Assembly: GCA_003576915.1 (NCBI GenBank)
Contig: QEVF01000003.1
Span: 113,737-177,736 of the forward strand
Direction: 5' to 3'
Length of the DNA stretch: 64,000 bases
Source of the DNA: Planctomycetota bacterium
GTDB taxonomy: Bacteria; Planctomycetota; UBA8742; UBA2392
Below are positions 10,001-52,400 of the stretch, piece after piece. A program made the translations under genes and the position numbers. The notes beneath the pieces are model-generated. The model was not told where the DNA came from, searched no databases, and saw only the letters and a program-made list of their open reading frames with translations. The stretch's first letter is position 1. Each line of letters opens with the position of its first letter.

Positions 10001-10345
10001 GCCCTGGTGAAGTACGATGCCGCCCATGAGCTGGACGGGGAAGTGCGCCTTGTAGGGGATGGTCTCGCCGCTGACGGGGTCCTTGACCATCTGGCGGTTG
10101 CCCAGCACGCGCCAGCTGGCTTCGCGCACGAGGGCGAAGGCCTCCACGAGCAGGTCTTCAAGAGACTCGCCGTCTCGACGCCGCTCTTTGAGCCGGGCCG
10201 TATAGTCCTTGAGTTCGGCGTCGGAAAGCGCGTTGGTCTTGGGGAAGAGGTCAAGAATCCTGTTCACGGTGGGCCAGAGCGCCTTGACCAGGCGTTCGTT
10301 GCGCGAACCAATGAAGAAGCGGAGAACCGTATCGAGAAGCGGCAT
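7001..10345 (-). CDS. secA: preprotein translocase ATPase SecA (long form, ~1115 aa)
   Basis: N-terminus MPLLDTVLRFFIGSRNERLVKAL, DEAD-like motor motifs, and C-terminal Zn-binding tail CHCGSGKKYKKCH. Confidence 0.95.
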   Translation of the reverse strand: MPLLDTVLRFFIGSRNERLVKALWPTVNRILDLFPKTNALSDAELKDYTARLKERRRDGESLEDLLVEAFALVREASWRVLGNRQMVKDPVSGETIPYKAHFPVQLMGGIVLHQGKIAEMVTGEGKTFVATPAAFLNALDGRGVHVVTVNDYLARRDAEEQGRVLALLGMSCGYILTDMDNEERREMYARDITYGTNNEFGFDYLRDNMKVDPRTQVQRELHYAIIDEVDSILIDEARTPLIISGAAEDNAAKYAKADEIAKTLKGIDSEKLKDIIVTKHGKAALQDKQLYLDELNHYDFEVKEKESQALLTERGVSKVEKALGVKHLYDGVHMEWPHLMEQALRANNLFKLDKEYVVHEGEDGPEIVIVDEFTGRLQHGRRWSDGLHQAVEAKHGIRVRAESQTLATITLQNYFKLYNKISGMTGSAMTEAAEFEKIYKLDVVAIPTNRPLIRADNEDLIYGTADEKWAAICEEIEKVHKTGRPILVGTTSVEKSEHLSRLLNARGLKHNTLNAKFHAREAEIVAQAGRKGQITVSTNMAGRGTDILLGGNPKFMALQALRAEGKKLEDFLPEEFRGVEGWRIPRDTLFAAELAWDRAVDEKAREFRPAIDAEHEEIVKLGGLQVIGTERHESRRIDNQLRGRCGRQGDPGSSQFFISLDDDLMRMFAGPRMKGIMQKLGLKDGQPIQARMVSKSVERAQKKVEQRNFDIRKNLIEYDDVNNGQRKAVYKKRQIVLAGMHRADFLALQTAARKKVVEVVKELDKVSDVSDQTRISAIVANKLAHWADEEHEAEIPDDALREQTVEEAVLRLAHTIRGKVHADRLREDLLDRIYNVIAASMQRNIKDPERHDTWNFVEIAADYRRVFNAEVDPKDMPRGMGGPEAVTKLQTWLYDRAVKLYEERERRICSDPTGAALKTPAGRPATGRMRQLERYLVLQSLDQHWKDHLKNLEIIKGSIHWESYAQKDPKDAYKKKGHEAFEAMLDSVDHEVVSTIFRIEVQFEEAPQVREVRQAQALHPAVTTTTSGGGAEMAPPAMPAEPEMPKPSEAQEQTRRQMQQAVQPSRDTGFMAHKKKLPGPNDPCHCGSGKKYKKCHMASDQAGSGQPGATTLRG

Positions 10346-10530
10346 GGAGCGAGATCCCAGAGTCAGGGGCGTGGACGGCACGCCCTACGAAATCTTGGCG
10401 CGGCGGGCTATACTCACGGCCCGAGGCACCGCGGTCAAGGAGTTAACGTACGTTGACGGGTTCAGGGAGTCTTGCGCCGGAGCATGGTTCAATGCCTTTG
10501 GGTCGGGCTTGCGCTGCAAGCGAGGTGAGC

Positions 10531-11994
10531 ATGATTAGGAAAGTACTGCTGGTCGCTTTCTCGCTGGGGCTTCTTTTCTGGGCCGGCTCGCGGGGTCAGG
10601 CGCAGGAAGCTGAGCGCGCCGTTGAGCTGAGGCTGGTGGGGTTGAGCCAGGGTTACACCCGGCCCCTGCGCACCACGAGCGAACGTCTTGGGAAGGTGCC
10701 GGGCCTCAGGGAGGTCAAGGCGATTTCCCATCGGGCCGGCATTACGCGCTTCACGGCGCGGACCGCTCTTTCCAACGATGCGATTGCCGCGGCGCTGGGC
10801 CTGAAGCTTCTCGATGCCCGCGACGGCGCGCTGCTGCTTGCCCCGGCAGCGGCCGGCGAGGCCTGGCGTGCGGAAGCCAGGCTGGTCATCCTGGCGATCA
10901 TGGAGGCCATTCGTGAGCGCCAGCACCGGCAGCGGCGCAACATGTGGGACGAACTGCCCAACCTCTTCCCGTCCGAATCCTCCACAGAACAGGCCCTCAA
11001 GGTCCTCGGCTTTGAGCCCAGGATGCTTGAGGGGCGCTTCTTCAAGCTCAAGGACTACCACATTGAGGAAGAGGCGGGCTGGAACGGCACCTACAAGGTC
11101 TGGGCAGGCGAGCGCTATGCACCGGTGCCCGTGGGCAACCTCTACGACTTTGATTTCAGCAACGCCCAGGGGGAGGAGCCCGATGCCAAGGCCCGCTTCG
11201 TCGGCGCCAGGATGAATTTAAGTTCCTGGGGCGGGGGCTTCTGGTGGGTGGATTTCCACGGGTCTGCACTCAACGGCGTCGAATTTGAGCGTGACGCCAC
11301 GGTCGCCGGCAGCGGCACCCTGGCCGTCCAGGCCGGCGCAGAGCGCATCGTCACGGTGCTTCAGGCTGCCGCGCGCTATCGCTTCAAGGAAGGCGTGGAC
11401 AAGAAGACGAAGGACGAACTTCTCCGGGGCAGCCTGGCCAACTGGCAGTCGAAATCCGAACTGGGCCTGGGCGAGGATTACTGGGACTGCCTGCCCTACT
11501 ACAACGATAACGCGTTTTCCCTGAGCTGGTTCAAGCACGAGCAAACCGGCCATCTGCATGCACGCGTCAAGGCCTTCTATCCCAGCCACGCCCTGCACCT
11601 CGACGGCGACCTGGACGTGGACGCGGCCAAGGCATCCGACTTCAACGTCGAAAAGGTTCCCGTGCGCTGGACTGTGGGCGCCGAAAAGGACGCCAACGTG
11701 TTTGAGCAGCGTCGCGTGGAACTGGCCGCGGGTCTCAAGGTCCTGCGCGATGCCTTGTTCGCGCTTCCGGCCCCGCCTCCGGCCGCGAGCGCGCTCAGCG
11801 GACAGGCCCTCTGCGCCGCGCTTTCGCTGGCGGAAGACAAGCTCAAAGGAGCCCACTTCAGCGCCGCCGATTATTTGCTTTTGCCCCAGATGCTGGGAGA
11901 CTGGGAGATTCGCGCCGGATCTTCTGCCACGGGCGGATCAAGCTGGACGCTGGTCAGTTTCACGTCCAAAACCGATATCCGGAGCTACCGCTGA
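10531..11994 (+). CDS. hypothetical secreted protein
   Basis: ATG at 10531 after AGGTGAG. Signal peptide MIRKVLLVAFSLGLLFWAGSRGQAQEA. Confidence 0.5.
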   Translation: MIRKVLLVAFSLGLLFWAGSRGQAQEAERAVELRLVGLSQGYTRPLRTTSERLGKVPGLREVKAISHRAGITRFTARTALSNDAIAAALGLKLLDARDGALLLAPAAAGEAWRAEARLVILAIMEAIRERQHRQRRNMWDELPNLFPSESSTEQALKVLGFEPRMLEGRFFKLKDYHIEEEAGWNGTYKVWAGERYAPVPVGNLYDFDFSNAQGEEPDAKARFVGARMNLSSWGGGFWWVDFHGSALNGVEFERDATVAGSGTLAVQAGAERIVTVLQAAARYRFKEGVDKKTKDELLRGSLANWQSKSELGLGEDYWDCLPYYNDNAFSLSWFKHEQTGHLHARVKAFYPSHALHLDGDLDVDAAKASDFNVEKVPVRWTVGAEKDANVFEQRRVELAAGLKVLRDALFALPAPPPAASALSGQALCAALSLAEDKLKGAHFSAADYLLLPQMLGDWEIRAGSSATGGSSWTLVSFTSKTDIRSYR

Positions 11995-12422
11995 TGCGTA
12001 CTGCCGCCCTCCTGGCACTGGCCCTTGGCCTCTCGTTCTACTGTGTGGCCTGCGGCGATGATCCTGCTCCAACGCCCCAGCCGCGCCCCGCTCCCTCAAG
12101 CGGGATCATCCCCATGTCGAGTATCAGCGAGGCGCAGAAGGCCGAGGCCATCCAGAACATCGGGCAGCTCAAGGCCGCGCTGCAGAGCCGTTCCGTGACG
12201 CCGTACAATCGCAACCTCGAAAAGCTCTCGCGTGACGTCAGCGGCACGTTGAGCGAGGCCACGGCCCAGAAGCTCGGCTTTGCCAGCGTTCAGGGCTTCA
12301 ACGGCCAGTGGTACAAGGCCTCGGACTACGCCATCGCCTACATGGGCAGCGGCAAGTTCCTGATTACGGCGGGCCAGCTCAACCAGCCCAACTACATCAG
12401 CGAGGAAGTGCTGATCCGCTGA
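11994..12422 (+). CDS. hypothetical lipoprotein
   Basis: Lipobox MRTAALLALALGLSFYCVACGDD. Start overlaps the upstream stop. Confidence 0.5.
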   Translation: MRTAALLALALGLSFYCVACGDDPAPTPQPRPAPSSGIIPMSSISEAQKAEAIQNIGQLKAALQSRSVTPYNRNLEKLSRDVSGTLSEATAQKLGFASVQGFNGQWYKASDYAIAYMGSGKFLITAGQLNQPNYISEEVLIR

Positions 12423-12461
12423 GCGCGTTCTCACACCCATGCAGGTTCTCCCGGAGTCTCC

Positions 12462-14324
12462 TTGAGTCAACTTCTTGCGATGTCCTTTGACGGCCTGGCT
12501 TCGCCGTCCATCACCCTCAAGCCCGAGCGGCGCCAGACCGCGGACCAGCCCTTTGGCTGGGGCTTTGCCTGGTATCCGCGCGGCGACAACGCGGCCGTCG
12601 TGATCAAGGACCCCACCAGCATCGGCGAAAACGCCATGACGAAGGTCCTGCGGGACTGGGAGCGCTTCCAGAGCTGCGTGTTTGTCTGCCATATCCGTGG
12701 TGCCGCGCAACGCATCACCCAGCAGGATACCCACCCCTTTGAGCGCAGCTACGCCGGCCGCGACTGGATCATGGCCCACAATGGAGATCTGGTGGGCGAC
12801 CTGGACGCCACTTTTCCACTGGAGGTGCAGTCGCCCTTTGAGCCCATCGGGCTGACGGATACCGAGCACGTGTTCTGCTGGCTGCTGTCCCAGGTGCGGG
12901 GCATGGGCGCGCGCTGCCTGGCGGACATAGGCTGGCACAAGCTCTATGCCTGGTTCGGCGAACTGAACCGGCACGGCACGGCCAACTTCCTGCTCTCCGA
13001 CGGGCAGGACCTCGTGGTGTACCACGACAAAGACCGCTTCAACGGCCTTCACTGGACAAGGCGGCTGCCGCCCCACGCCAGCTTCAAGCTGGAGAACGAC
13101 GAAGTGCTGCTCGACTTCTCCGACGAAATGGACACCAACCGCACCGTCGTTGTGGTCAGCACCCGTCCCCTGGCCGGAGACGACGGCTGGAAGGCCATGG
13201 AAGGCGGCCAGATGCTGGTCTTGCGCCGCGGCTCCATGGTGTGGAACAGCCAGGGCGCGGCGCTGCAGGGCGTTGTCGGGGCGGGCGATACATCCATTCG
13301 CGCCTCCAAGGCCACAGGTAAGGTGCAGGTGCCCGTGGGGGCGCAGGGCGCGGCACGCAAGCCGCATACAAGGGGGCGGCCCCATTCGGGGCGTCTGCGC
13401 GCCGTAGCCACCGAGCAGCGGGTGTTTGACGTGCTGCACGAAACGGTCTACCGCTATGACACGCCCGTTGAGCGTTCGACGCACGTGTTCCGGCTCAAGC
13501 CCGTGGTTGACCCCGTGCAGCAGCTCATCAGTCACAAGCTCAGCATCAACGTGGACGGGCTGCGCCGCGAGTTCGAAGATGTGTTTGGCAACGCTGCCAC
13601 CAACCTGGAAGTTGAAAGCCCCTTCAAGGAAATGCGAATTGTCTCGCGCTCGCTCGTGCGCGTGAACGGCGCGGGGCTTTCGCTGCAGCGCTCGCCATCG
13701 CGGCGCCTGACCATTCCGCTGGTCTGGATGCCCTGGCAGCGACAGATGATGATGCCCTACCTGCTTCCCCCGGAGTTGCCCGAGACCCAGCTTGCCGAGC
13801 TGTCTGACTTTGCGATGAGCTTCGTCGAGCGCCAGAACTTCGACCTGCTGGAAACGCTGGTCGACATGAACATGACGATTTACCGCGACTTCCGTTATGT
13901 CTCGGGCAGCACCCGGAACGAAACTACGCCCTTTGAGGTTTACACGCAGCGCAAGGGCGTCTGTCAGGACTTTGCCAACCTGCTCATCTGCCTGGCGCGC
14001 CTGCTGAGCATCCCCGCGCGCTATCGCGTCGGCTACATCTACACCGGCGCCAACTACGCCAACAAGGTCCAGAGCGAAGCCAGTCATGCCTGGGCGGAAC
14101 TCTATCTGCCCTGGGTCGGCTGGCGCGGCTTTGATCCCACCAACGGCTGTGTGGTCGGAAGCGACCACGTTCGCGTGGCCTGCGGCCGCAACTACCTTGA
14201 TGCGACGCCAACCAGCGGCACCATCTATGCCGGCGGCGGGCCGGAGACCCTGAGCGTGAACGTGAAAGTCGAGGTGGCCGGCGAGTCAGATCTGGCAGAG
14301 CTTGCGGCCAATGACGAAAGCTGA
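12462..14324 (+). CDS. fusion protein: class-II glutamine amidotransferase-like (YafJ-type) N-domain + Bact_transglu_N + transglutaminase-like core
   Basis: TTG at 12462 with GGAG 5 nt upstream. N-terminus MSQLLAMSF resembles YafJ-type MCELLGMS but has Ser where the nucleophilic Cys sits. Motifs CHIRGA, HPF, HNGDL. Mid-region YRYDTPVERSTHVFRLKP. Transglutaminase triad context GVCQDF, HAWAELYLPWVGW, GFDPTNG. Confidence 0.75.
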   Translation: MSQLLAMSFDGLASPSITLKPERRQTADQPFGWGFAWYPRGDNAAVVIKDPTSIGENAMTKVLRDWERFQSCVFVCHIRGAAQRITQQDTHPFERSYAGRDWIMAHNGDLVGDLDATFPLEVQSPFEPIGLTDTEHVFCWLLSQVRGMGARCLADIGWHKLYAWFGELNRHGTANFLLSDGQDLVVYHDKDRFNGLHWTRRLPPHASFKLENDEVLLDFSDEMDTNRTVVVVSTRPLAGDDGWKAMEGGQMLVLRRGSMVWNSQGAALQGVVGAGDTSIRASKATGKVQVPVGAQGAARKPHTRGRPHSGRLRAVATEQRVFDVLHETVYRYDTPVERSTHVFRLKPVVDPVQQLISHKLSINVDGLRREFEDVFGNAATNLEVESPFKEMRIVSRSLVRVNGAGLSLQRSPSRRLTIPLVWMPWQRQMMMPYLLPPELPETQLAELSDFAMSFVERQNFDLLETLVDMNMTIYRDFRYVSGSTRNETTPFEVYTQRKGVCQDFANLLICLARLLSIPARYRVGYIYTGANYANKVQSEASHAWAELYLPWVGWRGFDPTNGCVVGSDHVRVACGRNYLDATPTSGTIYAGGGPETLSVNVKVEVAGESDLAELAANDES

Positions 14325-16260
14325 CGCGGCCATGCTTCGCGCGCAGAAATCGAGGTTGCAGGCGGCCCTGACGTCTGCCCTAAGTGTTGCCCGCCAGTTG
14401 CGCGGCGGGCGCGTTGCCGACTACATTCCTGAACTGGCCAAGGCCGACCCCGCCAGCCTGGCCTTGGCGGCCTGCACACCCGACGGCGTGGTCTGCGAGC
14501 TGGGCGAGGCTTCGCTCGAATTCACGATTCAGTCCATCAGCAAACCGTTCGTGTACGGGCTGGCGCTGGCCGATCACGGCGTGGAGGCTGTGCACCGGCG
14601 CGTCGGGGTGGAGCCCGCCGGCGACAGTTTCAACTCCATCATCCGCCTGGAGCAGAGCACCAACCGGCCCCACAACCCCATGATCAATGCGGGGGCCATT
14701 GCCGTCACGAGCCTGATCGAGGCACGCGAGGGAAAGCCGCCGCTTCAGCGGCTGCTGGACCTGTTTGCCGCGGCCGCCGGCCGCAAGTCCGTGCAGGTGG
14801 ATTTGCCGGTCTACCTTTCCGAAGCCGCCAGTGGCCACCGCAACCGGGCCATTGCCCACCTGATGAAGCACTTCGGGATGCTGCGCGGCGACATTGACCG
14901 CACGCTGGAGCTCTACTTTCAGCAGTGTTCCGTGCTGGTCAGTTGCCGCGACCTCGCGGTCATGGCCGCTACCCTGGCCAACCAGGGCGTCAACCCGCTG
15001 ACGGGCGAGCGCGTACTGCCCGCCGAGGCGGTCACCCACGTGCTGAACGTGATGTTGACCTGCGGCCTCTATGACTTCGCGGGGCAATTCGCGTTTGAGG
15101 CCGGCATTCCCGCCAAGAGCGGTGTCTGCGGCGGCATCCTGGCGGTGGCCCAGGGCAAAGCCGGGCTGGCCTGCTTCTCGCCCCCGCTGGACGAGCGCGG
15201 CAACAGCCTGCGTGGCCTGGCGGCCATGCGTGAGCTCTCGCAGAGCCTGGGGCTGCACGCCTTTGATGCGCCCCCGGCCCGGCGCCCCTCGACGCGGCAG
15301 GCCGCCATCTCGGCGCGGCCTTCCAGGCGCACGGGCGCGGGTACCGCGCGCCTTGATGCGCTGCTGGCCGAGGTGCATCGCCGCCGGCGCGGCGAGTCCG
15401 GCGGGGCGCCTGCCTCATACATTCCGCAACTGGCTCGGTGTGATGCGCGGCTGTTCGGATTGGCGCTGTGCACGGTGGGGGGCGAAGAAGCAGCCCAGGG
15501 CGACGTGGACGTTCCGTTCACGTTGCAGGCCGCCGCCAATGTGTTCACGTACAGTCTGGCATTGCAGGCGCGGGGCAAGGACGTGGTGCACGGGAAGGTG
15601 GGATTTGAGCCCAGCGGCAATCCGTTCAACGCGATCATCTTTGATCCGCGCACGCAGCGCCCCTTCAACCCCCTCAGCAACGCGGGGGCCATTGCCATAT
15701 GTTCGACGATTCCCGGTCAGGGTGCCACGGCGCGCCTCAATCACCTGCTTGAGGGCATGGGCCGCTTTGCGGGCGAAGACAAGCTGCGCGTGGACCTGCA
15801 GGTCATGCTGGCCGAGCGCCAGGCCGGAGAACGCAACAAGGCCATCGCCTGCCTGCTGCGCAATTTCAACGTGATTGACGACGAAGAAGCGGCACTGGAA
15901 CTCTACTTCCAGCAATGCAGCGTGAGCGTGAATTGCCGGCAGTTGGCGCGCATGGGCGCGGCGCTGGCCGCCGGCGGCGTGAACCCGCGAACCGGGCATG
16001 TCGCGCTCGACGCCGATCACGTCAAACGCGTGCTCGCCCTCATGTACATGTGCGGCCTTCATGACGGCTCGGGGCAGTTCGCATTTGACGTGGGCATGCC
16101 GGCCAAGAGCGGCATCTCGGGCGGGCTGGTGGCAGTCGTTCCCGGCCAGTTCGCAGTGGCCGCCTTTTCTCCCCCCGTCGATGCCAAGGGCACCAGCGTG
16201 CGCGGAGCTCTGGCCCTGCACGACATTTCGGCGGCCTTGAGGGTGGGCTTGTTTGCCTGA
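14302..16260 (+). CDS. glsA: tandem-duplicated glutaminase (two GlsA-like domains in one 652-aa protein)
   Basis: Domain 1 has DYIPELAKAD and QSISKPFVYGLAL (Ser-x-x-Lys). Domain 2 has SYIPQLARCD and QAAANVFTYSLAL (Ser-x-x-Lys lost). The two halves align residue by residue. Confidence 0.85.
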   Translation: MRPMTKADAAMLRAQKSRLQAALTSALSVARQLRGGRVADYIPELAKADPASLALAACTPDGVVCELGEASLEFTIQSISKPFVYGLALADHGVEAVHRRVGVEPAGDSFNSIIRLEQSTNRPHNPMINAGAIAVTSLIEAREGKPPLQRLLDLFAAAAGRKSVQVDLPVYLSEAASGHRNRAIAHLMKHFGMLRGDIDRTLELYFQQCSVLVSCRDLAVMAATLANQGVNPLTGERVLPAEAVTHVLNVMLTCGLYDFAGQFAFEAGIPAKSGVCGGILAVAQGKAGLACFSPPLDERGNSLRGLAAMRELSQSLGLHAFDAPPARRPSTRQAAISARPSRRTGAGTARLDALLAEVHRRRRGESGGAPASYIPQLARCDARLFGLALCTVGGEEAAQGDVDVPFTLQAAANVFTYSLALQARGKDVVHGKVGFEPSGNPFNAIIFDPRTQRPFNPLSNAGAIAICSTIPGQGATARLNHLLEGMGRFAGEDKLRVDLQVMLAERQAGERNKAIACLLRNFNVIDDEEAALELYFQQCSVSVNCRQLARMGAALAAGGVNPRTGHVALDADHVKRVLALMYMCGLHDGSGQFAFDVGMPAKSGISGGLVAVVPGQFAVAAFSPPVDAKGTSVRGALALHDISAALRVGLFA

Positions 16261-16442: not shown

Positions 16443-17084
16443 ATGCTTTCCACATTCATCTCGGTCAAGACACGGCTGCCTGACCTCTGCACCGAGGTGT
16501 GGAGCTATGCGCTGGAGCTGCGCCGGGGAGGCGACCCCGGCGGCGCCGCGGCCGTCAAGAGCAAGGTCAGCAGCCTGTTTCGGCTGCTGGACAAGCAGGC
16601 CAAGCTGGCGCAGGTCGAGCAGGGGGACCTCCAGCAGGCCAAGTATGCCCTCTGCGCTCAGATCGACGAGATCGTGATGTCATCGGGCTGGCCCTGGCGC
16701 GACAACTTCGCGCCGCTGTGCGTCGAGTATTACGGCGACGCCGCCGCCGGCGAGAACTTCTTCCAGCGCCTCGAGACCTTCCGCCATTCCACGGAGACGC
16801 GCCGCCGCGACCTGCTCGAGGTGTTCTACATCTGCTTAGCCCTCGGTTTTCAGGGCAGGTACTCCGACACCCGGGGTCTCGAGCAGCGCAAGGCCCTCCT
16901 GGACGGCATCAGCCGCGAACTTTGCGGCGAATCCGCGCGCCCCCTTAGCGTGCAGGTGACCTCGCCCGACCCCCTGCCCGGGCCGCGTACCCCGCGCCCA
17001 CTCTGGATCGTACCGGCACTTTGCCTGCTGGCCGTGGGCGCGCTCTATGCCGCGCTGTCCTGGGCCCTGGGAACGACGGCATGA
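16443..17084 (+). CDS. tssL: DotU/TssL-family membrane protein
   Basis: DotU signature region DEIVMSSGWPWRDNFAPLCVEYYG and RRDLLEVFYICLALGFQGRY. C-terminal TM helix LWIVPALCLLAVGALYAAL. Confidence 0.8.
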   Translation: MLSTFISVKTRLPDLCTEVWSYALELRRGGDPGGAAAVKSKVSSLFRLLDKQAKLAQVEQGDLQQAKYALCAQIDEIVMSSGWPWRDNFAPLCVEYYGDAAAGENFFQRLETFRHSTETRRRDLLEVFYICLALGFQGRYSDTRGLEQRKALLDGISRELCGESARPLSVQVTSPDPLPGPRTPRPLWIVPALCLLAVGALYAALSWALGTTA

Positions 17085-20000
17085 ATCTGCGCGCCCTGAT
17101 TTCAGCGTTTATCAAGGAAGGCGGCATCGGACTGGCCGTGATCGTGCTGCTGGTGATGATGGTCTTGGTCGGCGGCGATTACTTCGAGCTTGAGCCCCGC
17201 CTGACGCAGGCGCTGATGGCGGGCATCGTGTTCGCAGGTCTCGCGATTTACGCGGCGAGGCGCATCATGGCCCGCCGCCAGGCGCGCAAACTGACGTCAA
17301 AGTTCATGGAGCTGGCGGCCGAGGACGCCGATGCCACCTTGGGCGAGCGCAAGGCCCGGCAGCAGGAGATTGCGTCTCTGCTTCGTGAGGGCGTGGCCGC
17401 CCTGCGCCTGTCGGAGCAGGGAGAGCAGGCCGTCACCCGCCTTCCGTGGTATCTCGTCATCGGCCCCGCCGGAGCCGGCAAGAGCACACTGCTGGAGGCT
17501 TCCGGCCAGAACTTCGCGCCGCTGGGCCGCGCACGCAGGCCGGTCACCGAGGCCGGCACCACGCGCGACCTGGACTGGTGGGTTGGCGGCCAGGGCGTGT
17601 TTCTGGATGTGCCCGGCCGCTACATCTCAGATGCCAGTGCTCCCTTTGAGTGGCCGGCCTTTGTCAGCGCTTTGAAGGAAACACGTGCCCAGGCGCCGGT
17701 TTCAGGGGTGCTGGTCGTCATACCCCTGCCCGAGATTCTCGCGTTGAAAAACGACGAGTTGGAACCCTGGGCCAAGAACATCCGCGACCGCCTCGATGAA
17801 CTCAGCGGCCAGTGCCGCTGGGTGTTTCCCGTTTATGTGGTCTTCAGCAAGTGTGACTGTGTCAAGGGCTTCGATGCCGCGTTCTCGAATCTGGCGACGG
17901 AGGGGCGCCGGCAGGCTTTTGGCGCCACGCTTCCCTTTGCCATCGACGAGAACCGAAACTACCGCACCATCTTTCATGACGAGTGCAACCGCCTCAGCGA
18001 GCCCCTGCGCCTTCAGGTTCTTGCCTCCCTGGCCCAGGATCTACCCGCAGCGCTCAAGGAAAGCATGGCGCTTTTCCCGCGGCAGTTCTTTCTGGCCCAG
18101 CGCCGCATGGGTGAAGTGCTGGGACCCGTCTTCCGACCCAACCCGTTCATTGAGACGGGCCTGCTGCGCGGCTTCTACTTCACCAGCGCCACCCAGGGCG
18201 GAGCCCTGCATGACCTGGTGTCTGAGCGGGTGGAGCCACGGCCCGTTCCCGTTGAAACGGCGGCGTTTTTCGTGGAGCAGATCTTCGCCGATGTGCTGCC
18301 GCCCGACCGTTTTCTGGCGCGCCTTTCCCTCAAAGAATCGCAGCGCAGACGCGTCCTTTCCACGGCGCTGGCCGCGGCCAGCCTGCTGCTGGCCCTGATG
18401 GTCTCGGCGGGCATGGCCCTTGCCTTCAGCGAGCGCCGCCAGAGCATCGTTTCGCTGGCGCAGGCGCGCGCCCATCCCGACCCCCTTGCGCGCATGGATG
18501 CCCTGCGCGATGCCCTGCTGCAGGCCGAGGGTAACCGCTCGCCTGTCACCCGCATGTTTGTTTTCAGCGGGGACCCCGAGGGCCGCGCCCTGGGCGAGGC
18601 GCGACAGGAATACCATCAGGCCCTGCGCGCCCATGTCATTCAACCCGCGGCTGACACCCTGGCGGCGGAAATCCAGCGCCTGAGGGATCAGCAAGTCCGA
18701 TCCATCGCTGATTACGACCGCATGCTGGCTGCATTTTCGGCCCTGCGTGCCCTTGCCGGCCGCGGCGACCTGAACGCGGAGGCCCTGCGCCCGGAACTTG
18801 AGCGCACCCTGGCATTGCTGGCTCCGCAAGCGGCCACACGCGAGATTCTCTTCCGGCAGTCGGACTATCTGCTGGCGCGGCCGGGAGAGCTGGCTTCCTG
18901 CCGTGCGCAGATCGCAAGCGGCCTGCTGGAGATCGTCGATCGCGAGTTGCGCGGGGCACTCTGGATTGAGGCGGCCTTTGCCGAAGTCCTGCGCGAGGCG
19001 CCCGCTGACCTTCCCGCCGTGAATCTGGAAGACCTTGTCGCTTCTCCCGGCCGCAGTTACCTCGCGCTGGGGCAGCCCGTGCCTGGCCTCTACACCCAGC
19101 GCGGCTACGACACGTACGCGGGGCCCGCCATGGCATCGCGGGCCCGGGAGATTGCGAGGCGCTATGGGGCGCTGGGCGAAAACAGGCCCGCCTGGAGTGT
19201 CGAGGCTTCATTGACAGACTACTACGCCGACGCCTACGCCCGGGCCTGGGATGATGCCCAGGCGTCGTTTGCGGTGGCTGACTTCGCCTCACTGAGCGAC
19301 TGCGCTGCGGGTCTGAAGCACCTGACAGGGCCGGATTCGGCCATGCGCGAGCTCATGGTTTCGCTGCGCGCAGGGCGCACGCTGCTGCTCAAGAACGGGA
19401 CGCAGCGCAACGCCGCCGGCGACGACCTGAAGTGGCTTGATTCCGGGCTGAGTCAGCTCAGGACAGTTCAGACGGCCCTGGAGGCCATGTTGCAGCGCAC
19501 CCATGCGGGTTCCCACCTGATGGAGTACCTGGCCCAGGAAAAATTGGACGCGCTGCTGGATACTCTCAACGGTGTGGCCCGCGGCATGGAGGATGTGGTG
19601 GCGGCGGCGCCCCGCGAGTCTCGCGGCCGCATGGGCGCCGTGCTTTCCGCCCTGCTTGGGGGAGTTATCCGAGAACTGCGCGAGGCGGCACTGGCCGAGG
19701 CCGGCGAAGTCTGGAGGGCAAGCGTGGCTTCGACATGGCGGTTGGACCTCGCGCCTTACTATCCGTTCAACGCCGAGAGCGTAAGCGAGGCCTCCCCTGG
19801 GACGGTTTCGCGCCTGCTCAATCCCAAGAACGGCAACCTGTGGGTGGCCCTGGCCCAAATGGAAAAGCTCCGTGCCAAGGCGGTCAACGGTCGGCCCCTG
19901 CTGGAGTACGGCCCGGAGTTCAGCGCTGCCCTGGAGCGTGCCGCCAGACTGCGTGACCTGCTTTTCGATGGAGGCGAGACGCTGAGCGTGCCCTTCTCGG

Positions 20001-20389
20001 TGGTGTTTGACCGGGGCGAAGGCGTGTCCGATGTGGGCTTCACGCTCGGCGACAAGTCCGTCACCTACACCGACCTGGGCACGAAGGCCGCCGAGTTTGC
20101 CTGGACGGAGTCCATGGCCCCCGGCGTACGCATTCAGGCCCGCGTGGGGCAGTCGCTGTGGCTGACCCGGTCCTACCCTGCGCAGAAGTGGGCGATCGTG
20201 AGGCTCTTCAGCGATGCCAGGCGAACCCCGGTGGGCGAGCAGCGCGTCAAGTGCGCCTGGGTCTTCACGCAGGTGCTGGGGACCCGAAACTTGAGCTTCA
20301 TGGCCTATGCCGAGTTCGAGTTCCGATCCGGGGTGGCCTTTGACCCCGCGCTCTTCACTGAACTCAAGTTGCCCGAGACCATGCGCTAG
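17081..20389 (+). CDS. tssM: IcmF/TssM-family inner-membrane NTPase
   Basis: ATG overlaps the tssL stop (ATGA). N-terminal TM helices, Walker A LVIGPAGAGKSTLLEASG, a third TM helix, then a ~700-aa periplasmic region. Size and topology are typical of TssM. Confidence 0.85.
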   Translation: MNLRALISAFIKEGGIGLAVIVLLVMMVLVGGDYFELEPRLTQALMAGIVFAGLAIYAARRIMARRQARKLTSKFMELAAEDADATLGERKARQQEIASLLREGVAALRLSEQGEQAVTRLPWYLVIGPAGAGKSTLLEASGQNFAPLGRARRPVTEAGTTRDLDWWVGGQGVFLDVPGRYISDASAPFEWPAFVSALKETRAQAPVSGVLVVIPLPEILALKNDELEPWAKNIRDRLDELSGQCRWVFPVYVVFSKCDCVKGFDAAFSNLATEGRRQAFGATLPFAIDENRNYRTIFHDECNRLSEPLRLQVLASLAQDLPAALKESMALFPRQFFLAQRRMGEVLGPVFRPNPFIETGLLRGFYFTSATQGGALHDLVSERVEPRPVPVETAAFFVEQIFADVLPPDRFLARLSLKESQRRRVLSTALAAASLLLALMVSAGMALAFSERRQSIVSLAQARAHPDPLARMDALRDALLQAEGNRSPVTRMFVFSGDPEGRALGEARQEYHQALRAHVIQPAADTLAAEIQRLRDQQVRSIADYDRMLAAFSALRALAGRGDLNAEALRPELERTLALLAPQAATREILFRQSDYLLARPGELASCRAQIASGLLEIVDRELRGALWIEAAFAEVLREAPADLPAVNLEDLVASPGRSYLALGQPVPGLYTQRGYDTYAGPAMASRAREIARRYGALGENRPAWSVEASLTDYYADAYARAWDDAQASFAVADFASLSDCAAGLKHLTGPDSAMRELMVSLRAGRTLLLKNGTQRNAAGDDLKWLDSGLSQLRTVQTALEAMLQRTHAGSHLMEYLAQEKLDALLDTLNGVARGMEDVVAAAPRESRGRMGAVLSALLGGVIRELREAALAEAGEVWRASVASTWRLDLAPYYPFNAESVSEASPGTVSRLLNPKNGNLWVALAQMEKLRAKAVNGRPLLEYGPEFSAALERAARLRDLLFDGGETLSVPFSVVFDRGEGVSDVGFTLGDKSVTYTDLGTKAAEFAWTESMAPGVRIQARVGQSLWLTRSYPAQKWAIVRLFSDARRTPVGEQRVKCAWVFTQVLGTRNLSFMAYAEFEFRSGVAFDPALFTELKLPETMR

Positions 20390-23232: not shown

Positions 23233-26103
23233 TTAGCGCACGCCCTGCAGCAGGCTGAGCACAGCCTGGGGGATGCTGTTGGCCGCCGAGAGCACGCTGG
23301 TGCTGGCCTGGAACAGGATCTGGGCCTTGGTGAACGCGCTGGTTTCGGCCGCGAAGTCCAGGTCGCGGATGAAGCTTTGCGCCCCGGACAGATTCTCCAC
23401 GGCCACACCCACGCTGTTGAGGTTGCGCTGCAGCGTATCGCTGGAGACTGAACCCAGGTAGCTGCGCAGGCCGGTCACCTGGTCGATGGCGCGGTCCACG
23501 ATCTCGAGCGCGTTGGCGGCGTTGGTGCTCAGGTCATTGCCTGCGCCCGTACGCAGCGTGTTCAGAGAGCCGCCGGGATAACCGCCGGCCTCCAGGCTTT
23601 CCGGCGTGATCTTGGCCCCGAGCGTGCCCGTGCTGATCTGACGGATGCCCACCATCAGGCTGTCCACGGCGCTGTTCGTCTCGCGCAGCTGGAAGCGCAT
23701 GCCACTGATGTCCTGCGGGCCGCCGCTGTAGCTCTGGCGCACGGCAAAGCTCACGCTGTCCAGGTAGCCGTTGGGCAGGCGGGACTGCGCGTACTGCGGC
23801 GTCAGCGCCGAGGCACCGCTGATGCTGGCATTCTGGGCAAAACCAAAGCGCGCCGCGTCGTTGCGCGTGCCGGCGCTGCCGGCCGCCCCGAAGCTCTGGG
23901 CGAGCGAGAACTTGACGTCGAGGGGGCCAGTGACGAAGTTGACGTCCCAGCCGCGTCCCTGGAAGGCCATGCCGCTGATGTTGCCTTTCACGTCGCTGCC
24001 CACGGCCTGAATGCGTGAGCCCGCCACGCCCGTGACCGTGTTGGTCGTGCCGGCCAGAGCGCCGAGTCCGCTGCGCCCGTCGCCGGTGGCGGCCAGCCCG
24101 CCCTGAAGGGCCGACTTCAGGCCCACACCCGAGGTCGGCGCCGTGACATCCTCAAGGCTGATGATCTGGTCGGAACCGAATTCCGTGCTGAACAGCGCCA
24201 GGCGCTCGAAGTTGCTGGTGCTGGCGCTGTTGGCGCGGCCGAACACGGCGTGCATGTCCGTATCGGAGCCGACGCTGTCCTCGTTGATGGTGAAGGTGCC
24301 GCCGAAGCGATCCACGATGCTGAGGCCGCCCTTGGCATCGAAGTAGGCCTGATAGCGCGTGCGCAGGTCGTCCTGGCCCACGGCGTCGTTGGAGGCGGCG
24401 TTGAGGGCCGTCTGGATGTCCGAAAGCGTGATGAAGCCTGAGGGGCCCGCCGCCACGCTGATGGTCGAAACGCCGCTGGAATCACGGATCTCGAAGTCGA
24501 GCGTGCCGCCGGACACCACGGCGGGCGGAATGGCCAGCGAGCCGCTGTCGGTCACAAAGCCCTTGGGAACGGCGAAGTTGATGAAGCTGACGGGCTCATC
24601 CTTCGAAGCGCCGGATTCGCCCGTGATGCCAAGCTTGCCAAGGTCGCCCGTGTAGCGCGTAACGTCGCGCGAGCCGTTGAGCGCGGCCTGCGTGACGTCG
24701 TCGTCGCCGCCCTGGTTGGTGATGCCCACCGCGGTGCCCGCGGCGCCCAGGGTGCTGCCCGTCATGTCAATGACGACCAGGTTGCCGTTGGCGTCGGTCT
24801 GTACGGCCGCATTGCCGCCAAAGGCCGCCATGCTGCGCACCGCCGCGACCATGGCCGCGATGTCGGCGGGGTTGTCCACGCCCAGGCCGCCGGTGTTGGC
24901 AAAGGAAAGCTCTTCATCGCCCGCGGTGATGGTGCCGTCGCCGTCCACATCAAAGCCGATGGCCGTGCCGTCGCCGAAGGTGGCCGAAGCCGAGCCGCCC
25001 TCGTTGGCCGTGAACATGGAGGCGATCTGGTCGGCACTGAGGGTGAAGGTGCGTACGTTCTGGGCTCCGCTGAACTTGAAGTTCGAGGCGGCGTTGCGGA
25101 TGACGAGGTCGCCGTCGCGGTTGTAGACCTCGAAGTTGGGATCCACGGCCGTCAGGGCCGCCTGGAGTTCCGCCTCGCTGATGACCGAGTCAGCTCCGCT
25201 GTTGATCACGATGTTCCGCGCGGGAGCCGAGCCCACCTGCAGGTTGAACACCATGTCCTGGCCGTTGCCGTTGAGCTGAATGCCCGAGCCCTTGCCCTTG
25301 AGCACGAACTCGGCCGAGCCGCTGTCCAGCGCCATGGGGCGGTAGCCCGCGGCGTAGACGCCGGTGGCCGAACTGTTCTGGTTGATGGCGGCAATCAGGT
25401 CGCCCACGGTGCTGCCGGCGCCCAACAGCAGGTCTTCGCTGCCCTTGGAGCCGCGCACGCGCAGTGTGACGAAGTCGGCCGCGTTGCCGCCGGGGCGCAC
25501 TTCCGTCAGCGTCTGCGTCGAGTCGAAGGCCTGGTTGGTCACAATCGTGGCGCGCTCGGCCATCTGGCCGATGTTCACGTCGAACTTCTGGACCTCGGCG
25601 CCGGGAGCCAGGCGCACGCTGCGCACGTCGAGTTCGTCAAAGGCGCCGGTCTGAGCCTTTTCCACAAGAAAGGCGCTGTCACCGTTGAGCAGGCCCCGCT
25701 TGCCAAAGCGCGTGCTCTGGGCGATGCGGTCGATGGCGACCAGAGACTGGTTGAGTTTGTCCTGCTCCGCCGCGATCTGCTCGCCGGAGGCAAAGCCCGT
25801 GTTCAGGGCGAACACCACGCTCGAACGCATGTTCACCAGCACATCGCTGATTTCCTGGAGCGCGGCTTCGGCGGTATTGATGATGTTGATGTCGTTCTGG
25901 GTGTTCTCCAGCGCGCGGTTCAGGCTTCCGATCTGGGCGCGCAGCTTTTCGGAGATGACCAGCCCCGAAGGGTCGTCGGAGGCGCGGTTGATGCGCAGGC
26001 CGGTGCTGAGGCGCTCGAGAGACGCCTGTTGCATCTGGTCGTTGCGCTTGAGATTCGTCAGAGCGCTGAGCGAGCTGATATTGTTGTTGACGCGAAGACC
26101 CAT
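23233..26103 (-). CDS. fliC: giant flagellin (~956 aa) with conserved N/C terminal D0/D1 regions and a very large central variable domain
   Basis: N-terminus MGLRVNNNISSLSALTNLKRNDQMQQASLERLSTGLRINRASDDPSG. C-terminus TKAQILFQASTSVLSAANSIPQAVLSLLQ. ATG located at 26101-26103. Confidence 0.85.
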   Translation of the reverse strand: MGLRVNNNISSLSALTNLKRNDQMQQASLERLSTGLRINRASDDPSGLVISEKLRAQIGSLNRALENTQNDINIINTAEAALQEISDVLVNMRSSVVFALNTGFASGEQIAAEQDKLNQSLVAIDRIAQSTRFGKRGLLNGDSAFLVEKAQTGAFDELDVRSVRLAPGAEVQKFDVNIGQMAERATIVTNQAFDSTQTLTEVRPGGNAADFVTLRVRGSKGSEDLLLGAGSTVGDLIAAINQNSSATGVYAAGYRPMALDSGSAEFVLKGKGSGIQLNGNGQDMVFNLQVGSAPARNIVINSGADSVISEAELQAALTAVDPNFEVYNRDGDLVIRNAASNFKFSGAQNVRTFTLSADQIASMFTANEGGSASATFGDGTAIGFDVDGDGTITAGDEELSFANTGGLGVDNPADIAAMVAAVRSMAAFGGNAAVQTDANGNLVVIDMTGSTLGAAGTAVGITNQGGDDDVTQAALNGSRDVTRYTGDLGKLGITGESGASKDEPVSFINFAVPKGFVTDSGSLAIPPAVVSGGTLDFEIRDSSGVSTISVAAGPSGFITLSDIQTALNAASNDAVGQDDLRTRYQAYFDAKGGLSIVDRFGGTFTINEDSVGSDTDMHAVFGRANSASTSNFERLALFSTEFGSDQIISLEDVTAPTSGVGLKSALQGGLAATGDGRSGLGALAGTTNTVTGVAGSRIQAVGSDVKGNISGMAFQGRGWDVNFVTGPLDVKFSLAQSFGAAGSAGTRNDAARFGFAQNASISGASALTPQYAQSRLPNGYLDSVSFAVRQSYSGGPQDISGMRFQLRETNSAVDSLMVGIRQISTGTLGAKITPESLEAGGYPGGSLNTLRTGAGNDLSTNAANALEIVDRAIDQVTGLRSYLGSVSSDTLQRNLNSVGVAVENLSGAQSFIRDLDFAAETSAFTKAQILFQASTSVLSAANSIPQAVLSLLQGVR

Positions 26104-26197
26104 GACATCCTCCGTGATGGTCGGGCAGAAGCCCAAAATGGGCAGGCATCCGTGCCTGCCTCTGAGCCCGCAACGCGGGCGCAGCATGACGTGTCTG

Positions 26198-49408: not shown

Positions 49409-52400
49409 ATGGGCAACGCCGACCCGCTTGATGTCCTGTTCCTTTCCCGCGCCCAGGAGCGCCGGCTGCTGACTTCCGCCCAGGCCGCTTCCCTGCGCCA
49501 GGAGTTGGCCCTGCGCCGCCGCGTCGATCCTGACCTCGGTGTCCATGAACTTGCCGTCGAGCGCGGCTACATGGATGTCACCACCGCCATGCAGTTGCTC
49601 AACGCCAGGCCCAGCGACACGGTGGCCGACCTGAGGCAGCGTGCGGGCGAACCCACGGCGCTGGCGCCCGAGGATGAGCGCTTTGACGAAGTGCCTCGTC
49701 TGGTGGAGCCGCTGCCAAGCGGCATGCCTCCGAAGAAGGCGGGCCCGCGCAAGTCGAGCGACGAATCGCACCTGGAAATGGAGTTGCCCCCGCCAACGAG
49801 CCAGAGCGGCGATTCCCTGTTTGAGGATGGGTCAAACCCCGGTCTTGCGCCGCTGCCGGTGACGCCCAGGCCCGAGCCCATCCCCGAGTTGACGAGCTCG
49901 CCAGTGCTCGTGGAGCGTACCCCCAGCCAGTGGGATGATCTGGGTTCGACAAATCTGGGACTTGAAACCGCCAGCCAGGGACCCGCCCCGGGGGACCTCG
50001 CGCCTGAGGAGAATCTCGAGCCCATGCAGGTCAGCCCCCTGGCCGAGGATCAGCGCCTGGGCGGCAGCGGCGACACCCTGGTGGACTTTGACGAGTCGGC
50101 CAGCGAACTGGAGCCCCAGACCCAGTCCATGCCCGACCTCGCGCGCCAGCCCCTGCCCGCGATCGAGGACGAGCCCAAGGCTCCGCCGACGCCTTCCTCG
50201 GCACTCAACGACAGCGCTGTGCGTGACGTCATGCGCGACGCCGATGATGGCTATTTCGGTCAACCGGCCGATCTCACCCGGCCGGCCTTTTCCGACGCCG
50301 TGCTGGCGGGTGCAAAGATTGAGGAAGTCACGCTGTTTGACTCCGAAAAGGACGTGGCCAAGAGCGCCCCGGAAGACGATCCTTCGGCCACAGTGACCGA
50401 TTTCGGCAGGACGCGAGCGCCCGGCAGGAATTCCGTCCCGCCTGCATCCAAGTCGCCGTCGAAGGCGCCCGTGATCACGGAAGTCAAAGACGACTCCGAC
50501 GCGGATTTCGGCGTGACCCTGGCTGGTGACACAATCGCACCCACGGACCTCAAGACCGTCTACGATGACTCCGAGCCCGGCATCGACGATGAAGTCACGG
50601 GCGAAATCACCAACGAACCCAGCACCGGCTCGCGCACCAGCGGCATGAGCACGGCCATGGCGACGGGGGAAGTGGGCGGACGCAAGCGCAACAAGGTCGG
50701 CGTCGAGAGCAACATCACCGACGACCAGAACCTGGCGGGCGAACAGATCTCGGCCTCCCAGGTCACCCTGGCACAGATGCGTGAGAAGATGGGCCTGGGT
50801 GAAGGCGTGAAGATCGCCGATGGCCAGGACACCGCCATGCGCGTGGTCAAGCGCCTCAAGCAGGGCGGCGGTTCCTACAAGCGCTATACCGTGATCCGCG
50901 AAATCGCCCGAGGCGGCATGGGCAAGGTGCTGGAAGTCGAAGACAACGACCTGCGCCGCAGCGTCGCCCTCAAAGTGCTGCGAAAGGAAATGCTCGGACG
51001 CAAGGACCTCGTGGAGCGCTTCCTCGAAGAGGCCCAGATCACCGGCCAGCTCGAACACCCCAACATCGTGCCCGTGCATGAAATCGGCGTGGACGGGCGC
51101 GGCAACCTCTACTTCACCATGAAGCTGGTGGAGGGTGAGGAACTCAGCTCGGTGCTCAAGCGTCTGCGGCAGGGCGACGCCAATGCGGCGCGCAGCTATC
51201 CGCTTTCGCGGCTGGTGGAGATCTTCATCAAGCTGTGTGAAGGCCTGGCCTTTGCCCACTCGCGCGGCGTGATTCACCGCGACCTCAAGCCCGCCAACAT
51301 CATGGTGGGTCGCTTTGGCGAGGTGCAGATCATGGACTGGGGCGTGTCCAAGATTGTGGGCACGCGCGAGGAAACGGCCGAACGCACCGTGGCGAGCGAC
51401 CGGCGGGACGCCCACGCCGGGACCACCATGGTCGGCGCCATCCTCGGCACGCCCACCTACATGTCGCCCGAGCAGGCCCGCGGCGAAACCGACACGCTGG
51501 ACGTGCAGAGCGACATTTTCTCGCTGGGCGTGATCCTGTACGAGATCCTCTGCCTCAAGCTGCCCTGGACGGGCAAGAACTCCGAGGAAATCCTCGATCA
51601 GGTCCGCGAGTACGACCCCGAGCCGCCCTCGAGGCGCGCTCAGGACCGCGCCATTCCCCAGGAACTGGAACAGTTGGCCATGCGTTGCCTGAACAAGGAC
51701 CCGCGCGCCCGCATCCAGAGTACCCAGGACCTGATCGAAAACCTGCGCTCGTGGCAGGAAGGCAAAACGCTCTCGGCCGTCGAATACACCATGGGCCAGC
51801 TTGTCCGCAAATGGCTGGCGCGTCACCGCAAGGCCGTGTTTGCGGGTTCGGCCATCGTGCTCGCGCTCATAGGCGGCATCGTGGCCACGGTGGTCGTGCT
51901 GCGGCAGGCCCGCCTGGCCGATGTGCCCTTTAAGTTGAAGACCGGCGAAACACTGCTGGTCGAGGCGGCCACGGCAAGAGAGGCCGGGCAGTTCGCTGCC
52001 GCGTCCGACAAGGCCATCAAGGCTCAGAGCGAGTTTGAGGCGGTGCTCCAGCTCGTCGATGGCGACGAGCGCGCCCGCGAGGGACGCCAGAACGCCAGCC
52101 TCGAACAGGCCCGCGTGCAGGCCGCCCAGGAGCAGGCCGCGCGCGACGCAGCCCAGAAGGAAAAGGAAGCCGAGCGCCAGAAGAGCCTGGCCGACGCCCT
52201 GAAGAAGGCGCGGGCCAGTTGTGAATCCGCCGACCTCGCACTTAGGGAAGCTCAGGACCGCAACCGGCCGGCCGATGACACCATCCGCGGTCAGTACACC
52301 GCGGCGCTGCAGGACCTTCTGGCCGTTCTGGCCATTGACCCCGGCAACAAGGAAGCGGGCGACGAGAAGCTGCGCGTCGAAAAGTGGCTGGCGGACTACG

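Follow-up and report, generated by a model that had tools for sequence, protein, structure and literature searches.

Introduction

Among the described proteins, the closest to the N-terminal domain considered here are the YafJ-type proteins of the GATase_4 family, such as PA1307 (PDB 1te5) and EgtC (PDB 4zfj/4zfk), together with yeast Dug3, which we take to be a class II glutamine amidotransferase (GATase)-like N-terminal nucleophile (Ntn) hydrolase of the YafJ type. Their nucleophile is a cysteine and, to our knowledge, the enzymes with the class II amidotransferase fold all use Cys. Ser or Thr nucleophiles are instead found in other Ntn amidohydrolases, namely gamma-glutamyltranspeptidase, glycosylasparaginase, and the penicillin/cephalosporin acylases. 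The subject of this analysis is a 620-aa protein encoded in a 64,000-nucleotide stretch of DNA from a Planctomycetota bacterium (assembly GCA_003576915.1, contig QEVF01000003.1, positions 113,737 to 177,736 of the forward strand), hereafter the window; this protein carries serine where YafJ-type proteins have the nucleophilic Cys, and its YafJ-type domain is fused to a transglutaminase-like half.

The second half resembles the COG1305 proteins, including the transglutaminase-like putative cysteine protease of Cytophaga hutchinsonii (PDB 3isr), which are encoded by the third gene of the CP_ATPgrasp/Alpha-E/transglutaminase module, reportedly described by Iyer et al. in 2009. In the Anbu operon, ATP-grasp, alphaE, and transglutaminase genes are accompanied by Anbu, an Ntn protein with Thr1; no activity has been detected for Anbu, and ATP hydrolysis by the ATP-grasp protein alone has been documented (PMC6376114, PMC5666114). 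The operon is strongly expressed in nitrogen starvation (PMC6376114) and, in P. putida, PP_2685 (Anbu) and PP_2688 (CP ATP-grasp) show an induction of ~16-fold on nitrate versus ammonium (PMC8050072). The domains of the module co-vary in marine metagenomes with urea-metabolism domains (PMC3597751), and the transglutaminase-like half is predicted to be a peptidase reversing ATP-grasp-ligated peptide tags (PMC3495828). A peptidase of this kind differs from a glutamine-amide transferase, and the remark of a first-pass annotation of this DNA that glutamine side-chain amides are the target of both halves is therefore a conjecture.

The Nucleophile Position

A profile obtained from 50 members of the family is colinear from position 1 with 1te5 (PA1307, YafJ-like), as 'msellalsfD' and 'MCELLGMSAN' respectively, and on the basis of this residue-for-residue alignment Ser2 sits on the nucleophilic Cys, as a first-pass annotation of this DNA had recognized. 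The counts for close homologues given hereafter refer to an alignment of the protein with 120 homologues (121 sequences), in which the nucleophile column is readable in 113, the other 8 being shortened by gene calling. The features of the gene, in window coordinates, are the following:

12453–12456, + strand: Shine-Dalgarno sequence GGAG, 5 nucleotides (nt) 5' of the TTG start, read in the sequence, with the spacing kept in the orthologues L084 and L086
12462–14324, + strand: complete open reading frame (ORF) of 620 aa, a GATase_4(Ser)-linker-Bact_transglu_N-Transglut_core fusion (ORF listing, Pfam, and AlphaFold2 (AF2) model)
12462–12467, + strand: TTG initiator and AGT codon of Ser2, the Ntn nucleophile position (alignments and orthologue comparison)
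12462–13250, + strand: YafJ-type class II GATase/Ntn-hydrolase domain, aa 1–263 (Pfam GATase_4, E 8.8e-73)
12696–12698, + strand: codon of Arg79, the predicted class II GATase Arg binding the substrate alpha-carboxylate (113/121; aligned to HIRQA of 1te5)
12780–12785, + strand: codons of Asn107-Gly108, the predicted oxyanion-hole pair of the HNG motif (Asn 100/121, Gly 121/121)
12858–12860, + strand: codon of Asp133 (TDTE), the predicted equivalent of the Asp binding the substrate alpha-amino group (121/121; aligned to GETDSE of 1te5)
13260–13409, + strand: disordered, fast-evolving inter-domain linker, aa 267–316 (predicted local distance difference test (pLDDT) <50; ratio of nonsynonymous to synonymous substitution rates (dN/dS) 0.16–0.38)
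13428–13658, + strand: beta-rich Bact_transglu_N domain, aa 323–399 (Pfam E 1.1e-18, 68.2 bits against a cut-off of 27)
13866–14138, + strand: papain-like Transglut_core domain, aa 469–559 (Pfam E 2.8e-18, 66.6 bits against a cut-off of 23)
13962–13964, 14085–14087, and 14133–14135, + strand: transglutaminase triad, Cys501, His542, and Asp558

The conservation of Ser2 across homologues had been proposed as a check. Serine is not uniform at this position: the 113 readable sequences have Thr in 62 cases, Ser in 50, Gly in one, and Cys in none, so that the residue is Ser or Thr in 112 of them. Two forms of the N-terminus are present. In 47 proteins there is no extension and the chain begins exactly with Met-Ser (44) or Met-Thr (3), whereas 64 proteins have an extension with a median length of 24 aa, followed nearly always by Thr (59/64) and carrying Glu at −4 (56/64) and His at −3 (55/64). 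Since this motif is kept and the variable residue at −1 is mostly not a possible start codon, the extension appears to be translated and conserved, as expected for a propeptide, which it probably is. The extension subfamily (P0006–P0011 and 58 other homologues; L081, 10001–10075) has a Pro/Ala-rich peptide of ~24 aa with R-E-H-x-x directly before Thr. Both forms are compatible with a hydroxyl residue that becomes the first of the chain after processing, either behind the initiator Met or behind E-H-x-x, and an exactly placed N-terminus is what a mechanism requiring a free alpha-amine predicts. In the fusion genes of L002, L004, L005, L012, and L015 the N-terminus has a Thr-Ser or Ser-Ser doublet (M-S-S-E-I-L; x-T-S-D-I-L).

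A search with the N-domain only, among 1.84 billion representatives at 50% identity, gave 1201 matches at E<=1e-3, the best 150 of which were aligned and scored with a hidden Markov model (HMM) of the transglutaminase half. Within these 150, none of the 72 Cys-type representatives (MCELLG...) has the transglutaminase half, and none of the 26 fused representatives has Cys, 15 having Ser/Thr, 5 Pro, and 6 another residue. Spot checks with Pfam detected the three domains in one Pro-type and two degenerate representatives, and the transglutaminase half was missing in two long Cys-type proteins. Judged from these sequences, Cys is missing throughout the fused clade, and its loss is tied to the fusion.

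Domain Architecture and Fold

The assignment of the domains made in the first-pass annotation is borne out by Pfam, which detects GATase_4, Bact_transglu_N, and Transglut_core; in particular, residues 1–263 correspond to positions 1–257 of the 272 of the GATase_4 profile, with a score of 245 bits (cut-off 23). All the motifs that it quoted are present, in the N-half MSQLLAMSF (1–9), CHIRGA (76–81), HPF (91–93), and HNGDL (106–110), and in the C-half GVCQDF (499–504), HAWAELY (542–548), and DPTNG (558–562), the triad Cys501, His542, and Asp558 being intact. No NCBIfam model is specific for the 620-aa protein, and the weak match to Fpg (E 0.0011, 18 bits where the cut-off is 203) is due to chance.

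For the AF2 model, which derives from the family alignment, the mean pLDDT is 82.1 and the predicted template modeling (TM) score (pTM) is 0.83; the N-domain is mostly above a pLDDT of 85 and shows the four-layer alpha-beta-beta-alpha Ntn fold. In Foldseek searches against the PDB the N-half matches 1te5 (TM 0.84), EgtC 4zfk (TM ~0.69), and then PurF and GFAT, so that the possibility that this domain is unrelated to class II GATases finds no support in either the GATase_4 profile or the fold. The C-half matches 3isr (TM 0.76; sequence E 5e-17), and the triad aligns with those of 3isr and TgpA; searches by sequence in the PDB concur with Foldseek for both halves.

The N-domain thus shares with the YafJ-type proteins, besides profile and fold, the HxR, HNG, and TD(S/T)E motifs and the location at the very N-terminus of the chain, but differs from them in the nucleophile, Cys in YafJ-type proteins and Ser in the fusion, with Thr, Pro, or other residues in its relatives, and in the presence of a transglutaminase half. 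The C-half has both the transglutaminase domains of the COG1305 module proteins, with an invariant Cys-His-Asp, the difference being the extra Ntn domain at the N-terminus.

Conservation and Decay of the Active Sites

The other class II GATase residues, Arg79, Asn107-Gly108, and Asp133, are retained, with roles assigned by homology to GlmS, PurF, and EgtC. Glu135 is present in 121/121 sequences and, where Asn107 is absent, the residue is mostly Ser or Thr. The close homologues also have Cys501, His542, and Asp558 in 121/121 cases. The dN/dS values calculated between the window and the two closest orthologues are 0.09–0.21 for the N-domain, 0.07–0.14 for the transglutaminase half, and 0.16–0.38 for the linker, the N-domain and the transglutaminase half being thus under similar constraint.

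Outside the close homologues, the loss of Ser/Thr is accompanied by that of Asn107: residue 107 is other than Asn in all 16 representatives of the Pro type or of the 'other' class that have a transglutaminase half or MPNLL starts. Such a coupled loss would be expected if the two residues work together. The fused group of Myxococcota begins with MPNLLAMSFEG (MLNLL in Corallococcus) and has Ser or Ala in place of Asn107, Arg79 and Asp133 being intact. This Met-Pro subfamily includes L006, L008, L009, L011, L014, and L019 (L013 with Leu), as well as P0157, P0159, P0169, P0170, P0197, P0245, and P0262; the removal of Met would leave an N-terminal proline, and the domain could be dead or could use another chemistry based on the N-terminal amine. 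In P0146, P0152, P0155, P0158, P0161, and P0200 most of the catalytic and binding residues are gone.

The family comprises a large natural clade in which Cys is replaced by Ser/Thr with the rest of the active site kept, and sister lineages that decay stepwise to Pro-type and dead forms, constituting together a natural series on how the identity of the nucleophile is tuned in an Ntn scaffold.

Genomic Context

In the orthologues L084 (85% identity) and L086 (73%), a DUF2126 gene and a transglutaminase-DUF2126 gene in reverse orientation are followed, in forward orientation, by CP_ATPgrasp, Alpha-E, the fusion, and a tandem glutaminase, and in L084 the order continues with DotU and IcmF. In a 60%-identical Planctomycetes homologue CP_ATPgrasp, Alpha-E, and the fusion overlap in this order, and in another homologue the pair is convergent beside the fusion. 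CP_ATPgrasp and/or Alpha-E are detected by tblastn within 10 kb at 15 of 20 independent fused loci and at 59 of 64 loci of the unfused relatives of the transglutaminase half. Since these genes adjoin 15/20 fused loci, the fusion protein is the transglutaminase component of the module. Many module loci also have a divergent pair that encodes a ~1100-aa protein with Bact_transglu_N, Transglut_core, and DUF2126 and a ~720-aa DUF2126 protein (L083, 1762–7384, −; L084, 1671–7134, −; L086, 1973–7367, −), giving two transglutaminase-like proteins per locus.

The genes that flank the fusion in the window are the following:

10453–12422, + strand: two ORFs where relatives carry CP_ATPgrasp and Alpha-E, a synteny break directly 5' of the fusion and beside secA
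14302–16260, + strand: tandem glutaminase, sharing up to 23 nt with the fusion gene (Pfam and NCBIfam scans)

The upstream ORFs encode a 513-aa protein with a signal-peptide-like N-terminus (10453–11994) and a 142-aa lipoprotein-like one (11994–12422), neither of which has a family match in Pfam or PADLOC.

The gene downstream of the fusion contains glutaminase A twice in tandem; repeat 1 has an intact Ser-x-x-Lys (QSISK) and repeat 2 has QAAAN, with the catalytic Ser-x-x-Lys gone, in all three species (the window; L084, 11939–13867; L086, 11855–13771), so that it looks like an active and a dead copy in one chain. This neighbor is kept only in the closest clade (L084/L085, L086, L087–L089). 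Glutaminase as a general partner of the fusion can be discarded; none of the 18 fused loci outside that clade has it, and the partnership is consequently lineage-specific.

Anbu, for which crystal structures are available, is like the fusion an Ntn protein with a hydroxyl N-terminal nucleophile, putative in the fusion, and is tied to the same transglutaminase and ligase genes; it differs in having the proteasome-type rather than the GATase-II-type Ntn fold, in being a separate multimer instead of a fused domain, and in being devoid of the Arg/Asp glutamine clamp. The clustering of downstream ORFs gave no conserved Anbu gene directly 3' of the transglutaminases. Anbu-like genes, detected by motif and tblastn with a match to Pfam Proteasome, occur in 6 of ~89 loci, five of them beside unfused transglutaminases. 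The sixth, L003, is the sole fused one, with an Anbu-like gene (11898–12662, −) convergent and directly 3' of the fusion (~10001–11800, +); in the N-domain of this fusion the nucleophile position is occupied by Gly, and Arg79, Asn107, and Asp133 are gone. This single case would agree with the fused domain and Anbu being alternative Ntn partners. The window and the other fused loci have no Anbu-like ORF. With Anbu in only 6 of ~89 loci, the parallel between the two systems derives mainly from the literature.

Proposed Function and Alternatives

The reading that we favor, with a probability of about 0.5, is that the fusion combines a Cys-His-Asp peptidase with a gamma-glutamyl hydrolase whose nucleophile is a hydroxyl. 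The protein would be a bifunctional cytoplasmic enzyme whose N-domain acts as an Ntn amidohydrolase of the YafJ/EgtC type with a hydroxyl N-terminal nucleophile, Ser2 being exposed by methionine aminopeptidase and, in the sister subfamily, Thr being exposed once the ~24-aa propeptide ending in E-H-x-x is removed. The hydroxyl group of Ser2, activated by the free alpha-amine, would attack a gamma-glutamyl or glutamine amide, with Asn107/Gly108 forming the oxyanion hole and Arg79/Asp133 clamping the free alpha-carboxylate and alpha-amino group of the glutamine or gamma-glutamyl head group, as in class II amidotransferases and EgtC. The gamma-glutamyl amide would be hydrolyzed via an ester acyl-enzyme; of the possible substrates, a peptide or tag bearing a terminal gamma-linked Glu/Gln is likelier than free Gln. 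Such chemistry would be akin to that of gamma-glutamyltranspeptidase, on a GATase-II scaffold; in fact, the proposed enzyme would share with the Ser/Thr Ntn amidohydrolases the hydroxyl nucleophile, the free alpha-amine as the base, the exposure by Met removal or autoproteolysis, and the ester acyl-enzyme. In contrast, there is no detectable sequence relation with them, and they consist of two chains generated at an internal site, whereas in the fusion family a short N-terminal peptide would be removed.

The C-half would be a COG1305-type enzyme with a papain fold, either a peptidase or a transamidase, with Cys501-His542-Asp558, able to cleave or transfer peptide-linked substrates. Both halves would represent the 'eraser' arm of the CP_ATPgrasp/Alpha-E/transglutaminase module, dismantling the products of the ATP-grasp ligase, and the fused Ntn domain would take the role of Anbu, the free-standing Thr1 Ntn protein that other forms of the operon encode. 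In this Planctomycetota lineage the fusion would work with the tandem glutaminase, releasing glutamate and ammonia; the coupling of the two genes points to such a release from gamma-glutamyl or glutamine compounds.

A hydrolase recognizing glutamine or gamma-glutamyl groups, welded to the transglutaminase of the module, would narrow the search for the substrate of the latter and suggests simple assays. A more ambitious version, in which these proteins are the first enzymes of the class II amidotransferase fold with a Ser/Thr nucleophile, the Thr form is autoproteolysed between E-H-x-x and Thr, the domain is a non-homologous replacement of Anbu, and the product of the module, as the intact Arg79/Asp133 clamp would imply, carries a terminal gamma-glutamyl or glutamine residue, is put forward tentatively and is less likely than not. 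If true, it would offer a first definite clue to the chemistry of a widespread operon induced by nitrogen starvation.

Several observations weigh against the favored reading. The Cys1-to-Ser mutants of PurF, AsnB, and GlmS lose glutaminase activity, and because of this a hydroxyl nucleophile in a class II scaffold is not guaranteed to be functional. Among the 15 fused Ser/Thr representatives, 8 are without Asn107, and in distant fused lineages, where position 2 is Pro, Leu, or Gly and the active sites are degraded, both the fusion and the operon persist, which indicates that catalysis by the N-domain is dispensable in at least some lineages. The conserved motif is the one ground on which cleavage of the propeptide is presumed. 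Moreover, four query proteins compared by tblastn with the 64-kb window revealed no CP_ATPgrasp, Alpha-E, or DUF2126 gene in it. In this the window differs from the loci of the COG1305 module proteins, as it does in the tandem glutaminase behind the fusion. The gene order of the window recurs in three other assemblies of the species and, given these independent assemblies, the missing ligase genes are not an assembly artefact; the protein is an orthologue of the module component, uncoupled here from the ligase genes. Finally, the proposed replacement of Anbu is drawn from the literature context and one anecdotal locus, L003.

The strongest alternative, less probable than the hydrolase and yet a serious one, is a pseudo-enzyme, in which the N-domain is a non-catalytic binder of glutamine or gamma-glutamyl groups through Arg79 and Asp133 that brings substrates to the transglutaminase-like domain or exerts allosteric control over it, and Ser/Thr at position 2 is kept for ligand contacts or folding. 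The inactivity of the canonical mutants would agree with this, as would the missing Cys in every fused member, the higher conservation of the substrate-binding Asp133 and Glu135 in comparison to the nucleophile or the oxyanion Asn, and the persistence of the three domains and of the CP_ATPgrasp/Alpha-E neighborhood in several Pro/Leu/Gly or degraded lineages. A binder, however, does not need a precisely placed free N-terminus, and the chain either starts exactly one residue before position 2 or has E-H-x-x before Thr; the restriction of position 2 to Ser/Thr in 112/113 close homologues and the joint loss of Ser/Thr and Asn107 are also at odds with binding alone. Of the two possibilities left by the first-pass annotation, a Ser-nucleophile hydrolase or a pseudo-enzyme, the comparative data hence lean towards an active hydroxyl nucleophile in the clade, without settling the choice.

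Far less probable is a true amidotransferase glutaminase, which would deliver ammonia from free Gln to a synthase-like activity in the C-half or in the adjoining glutaminase, as in GlmS, PurF, and AsnB. The name 'class II glutamine amidotransferase' given by pipelines, the retention of the Gln-binding residues, and the adjoining glutaminase gene are in line with it, but the characterized relative EgtC ('Ergothioneine-biosynthetic Ntn hydrolase') is an amidohydrolase and not an ammonia-channelling transferase, Dug3 being a second such relative. Furthermore, no ammonia-accepting chemistry is known for its partner, a papain-fold peptidase/transamidase, a disordered linker of 50 aa joins the two domains, and an adjacent dedicated glutaminase would make the role redundant.

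The Start Codon

The identity of position 2 depends on the initiator. An in-frame TGA lies at 12420–12422, and the TTG at 12462 is the first possible initiator after it, the next being the ATG at 12480; with no start codon between the TGA and the TTG, an upstream start supplying Cys is ruled out, in agreement with the first-pass annotation. The TTG, with GGAG 5–6 nt upstream, is kept in the window and in both L084 and L086, and in L084 a TGA directly abuts the TTG on its 5' side. The codons of S-Q-L-L-A undergo only synonymous changes between the window and these orthologues, including those of Ser2 and Ala6 in all three species, and S-x-L-L-A is kept as protein across the family, even inside the long N-terminal extensions (Leu4 in 104/121, Ala6 in 98/121). 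In the AF2 model residues 3–13 form a confident first strand and align with strand 1 of 1te5, and the Prokaryotic Genome Annotation Pipeline (PGAP) also yielded a 620-aa form, P0272. The conserved TTG and spacing, the abutting TGA of L084, and the synonymous-only changes of Ser2 and Ala6 favor TTG 12462, which the orthologue comparison supports as the true start.

A start at ATG 12480 (MSFDG...), which would deprive the domain of its first beta-strand and N-terminal nucleophile and place 'Ser2' in an untranslated leader, is the least probable of the alternatives and is rejected on Shine-Dalgarno spacing and comparative grounds: ATG outranks TTG as an initiator and several gene callers begin the 99%-identical P0001 (614 aa) and P0002–P0004 at MSFDG, but GGAG is 23 nt away from it against 5 nt for TTG, and the spacing kept in three species, the synonymous codons, the conserved Leu4 and Ala6, and the match to strand 1 of 1te5 all oppose it.

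Distribution and Annotation

A search with the whole protein gave 1458 matches at E<1e-10, the best 120 of which all have GATase_4, Bact_transglu_N, and Transglut_core and come, according to their source names, from Planctomycetes, Myxococcota, Bradymonadia, and Deltaproteobacteria. A scan of species-representative genomes adds Candidatus Obscuribacterales, Algimonas (Alphaproteobacteria), Waddliaceae (Chlamydiota), Francisella, Corallococcus, Anaeromyxobacter, and Verrucomicrobia. Both halves are already annotated by the Joint Genome Institute (JGI), NCBI, and Prokka-type pipelines, and in metagenome-assembled genomes of Planctomycetota the protein of the window is called 'hypothetical protein', 'transglutaminase', 'class II glutamine amidotransferase', or 'putative glutamine amidotransferase YafJ'. 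The annotation is therefore inconsistent across records, and the start codon is often called past the key residue Ser2. The fusion, regarded at first as unusual and undescribed, turns out to belong to a large multi-phylum family whose halves are named by the pipelines. A literature search, which did not reach Iyer et al. 2009, returned no paper on the YafJ/GATase_4-transglutaminase fusion. On these comparisons the fusion is a common, already annotated family, and the apparent novelty is that Ser/Thr has taken the place of Cys throughout the clade, in connection with the fusion, along with a probable propeptide variant and sister lineages in decay.

Other Genes of the Window

The glutaminase is followed by orphan DotU (TssL, 16443–17084) and IcmF (TssM, 17021–20389) genes on the + strand, kept in L084 (13886–17841). 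No other type VI secretion genes are present in the 64-kb window, and the reading of the locus as a type VI secretion effector or defense system is discarded, DotU and IcmF being orphans, the rest consisting of flagellar and housekeeping genes, and PADLOC giving no matches. The flagellin gene (23233–26187, −) encodes an unusually long protein (984 aa) in which a central region of ~700 aa separates Flagellin_N and Flagellin_C ends of the ordinary kind, and the gene at 49409–53986 (+) encodes a 1525-aa protein with a Ser/Thr protein kinase domain and a C-terminal FGE-sulfatase-like domain.

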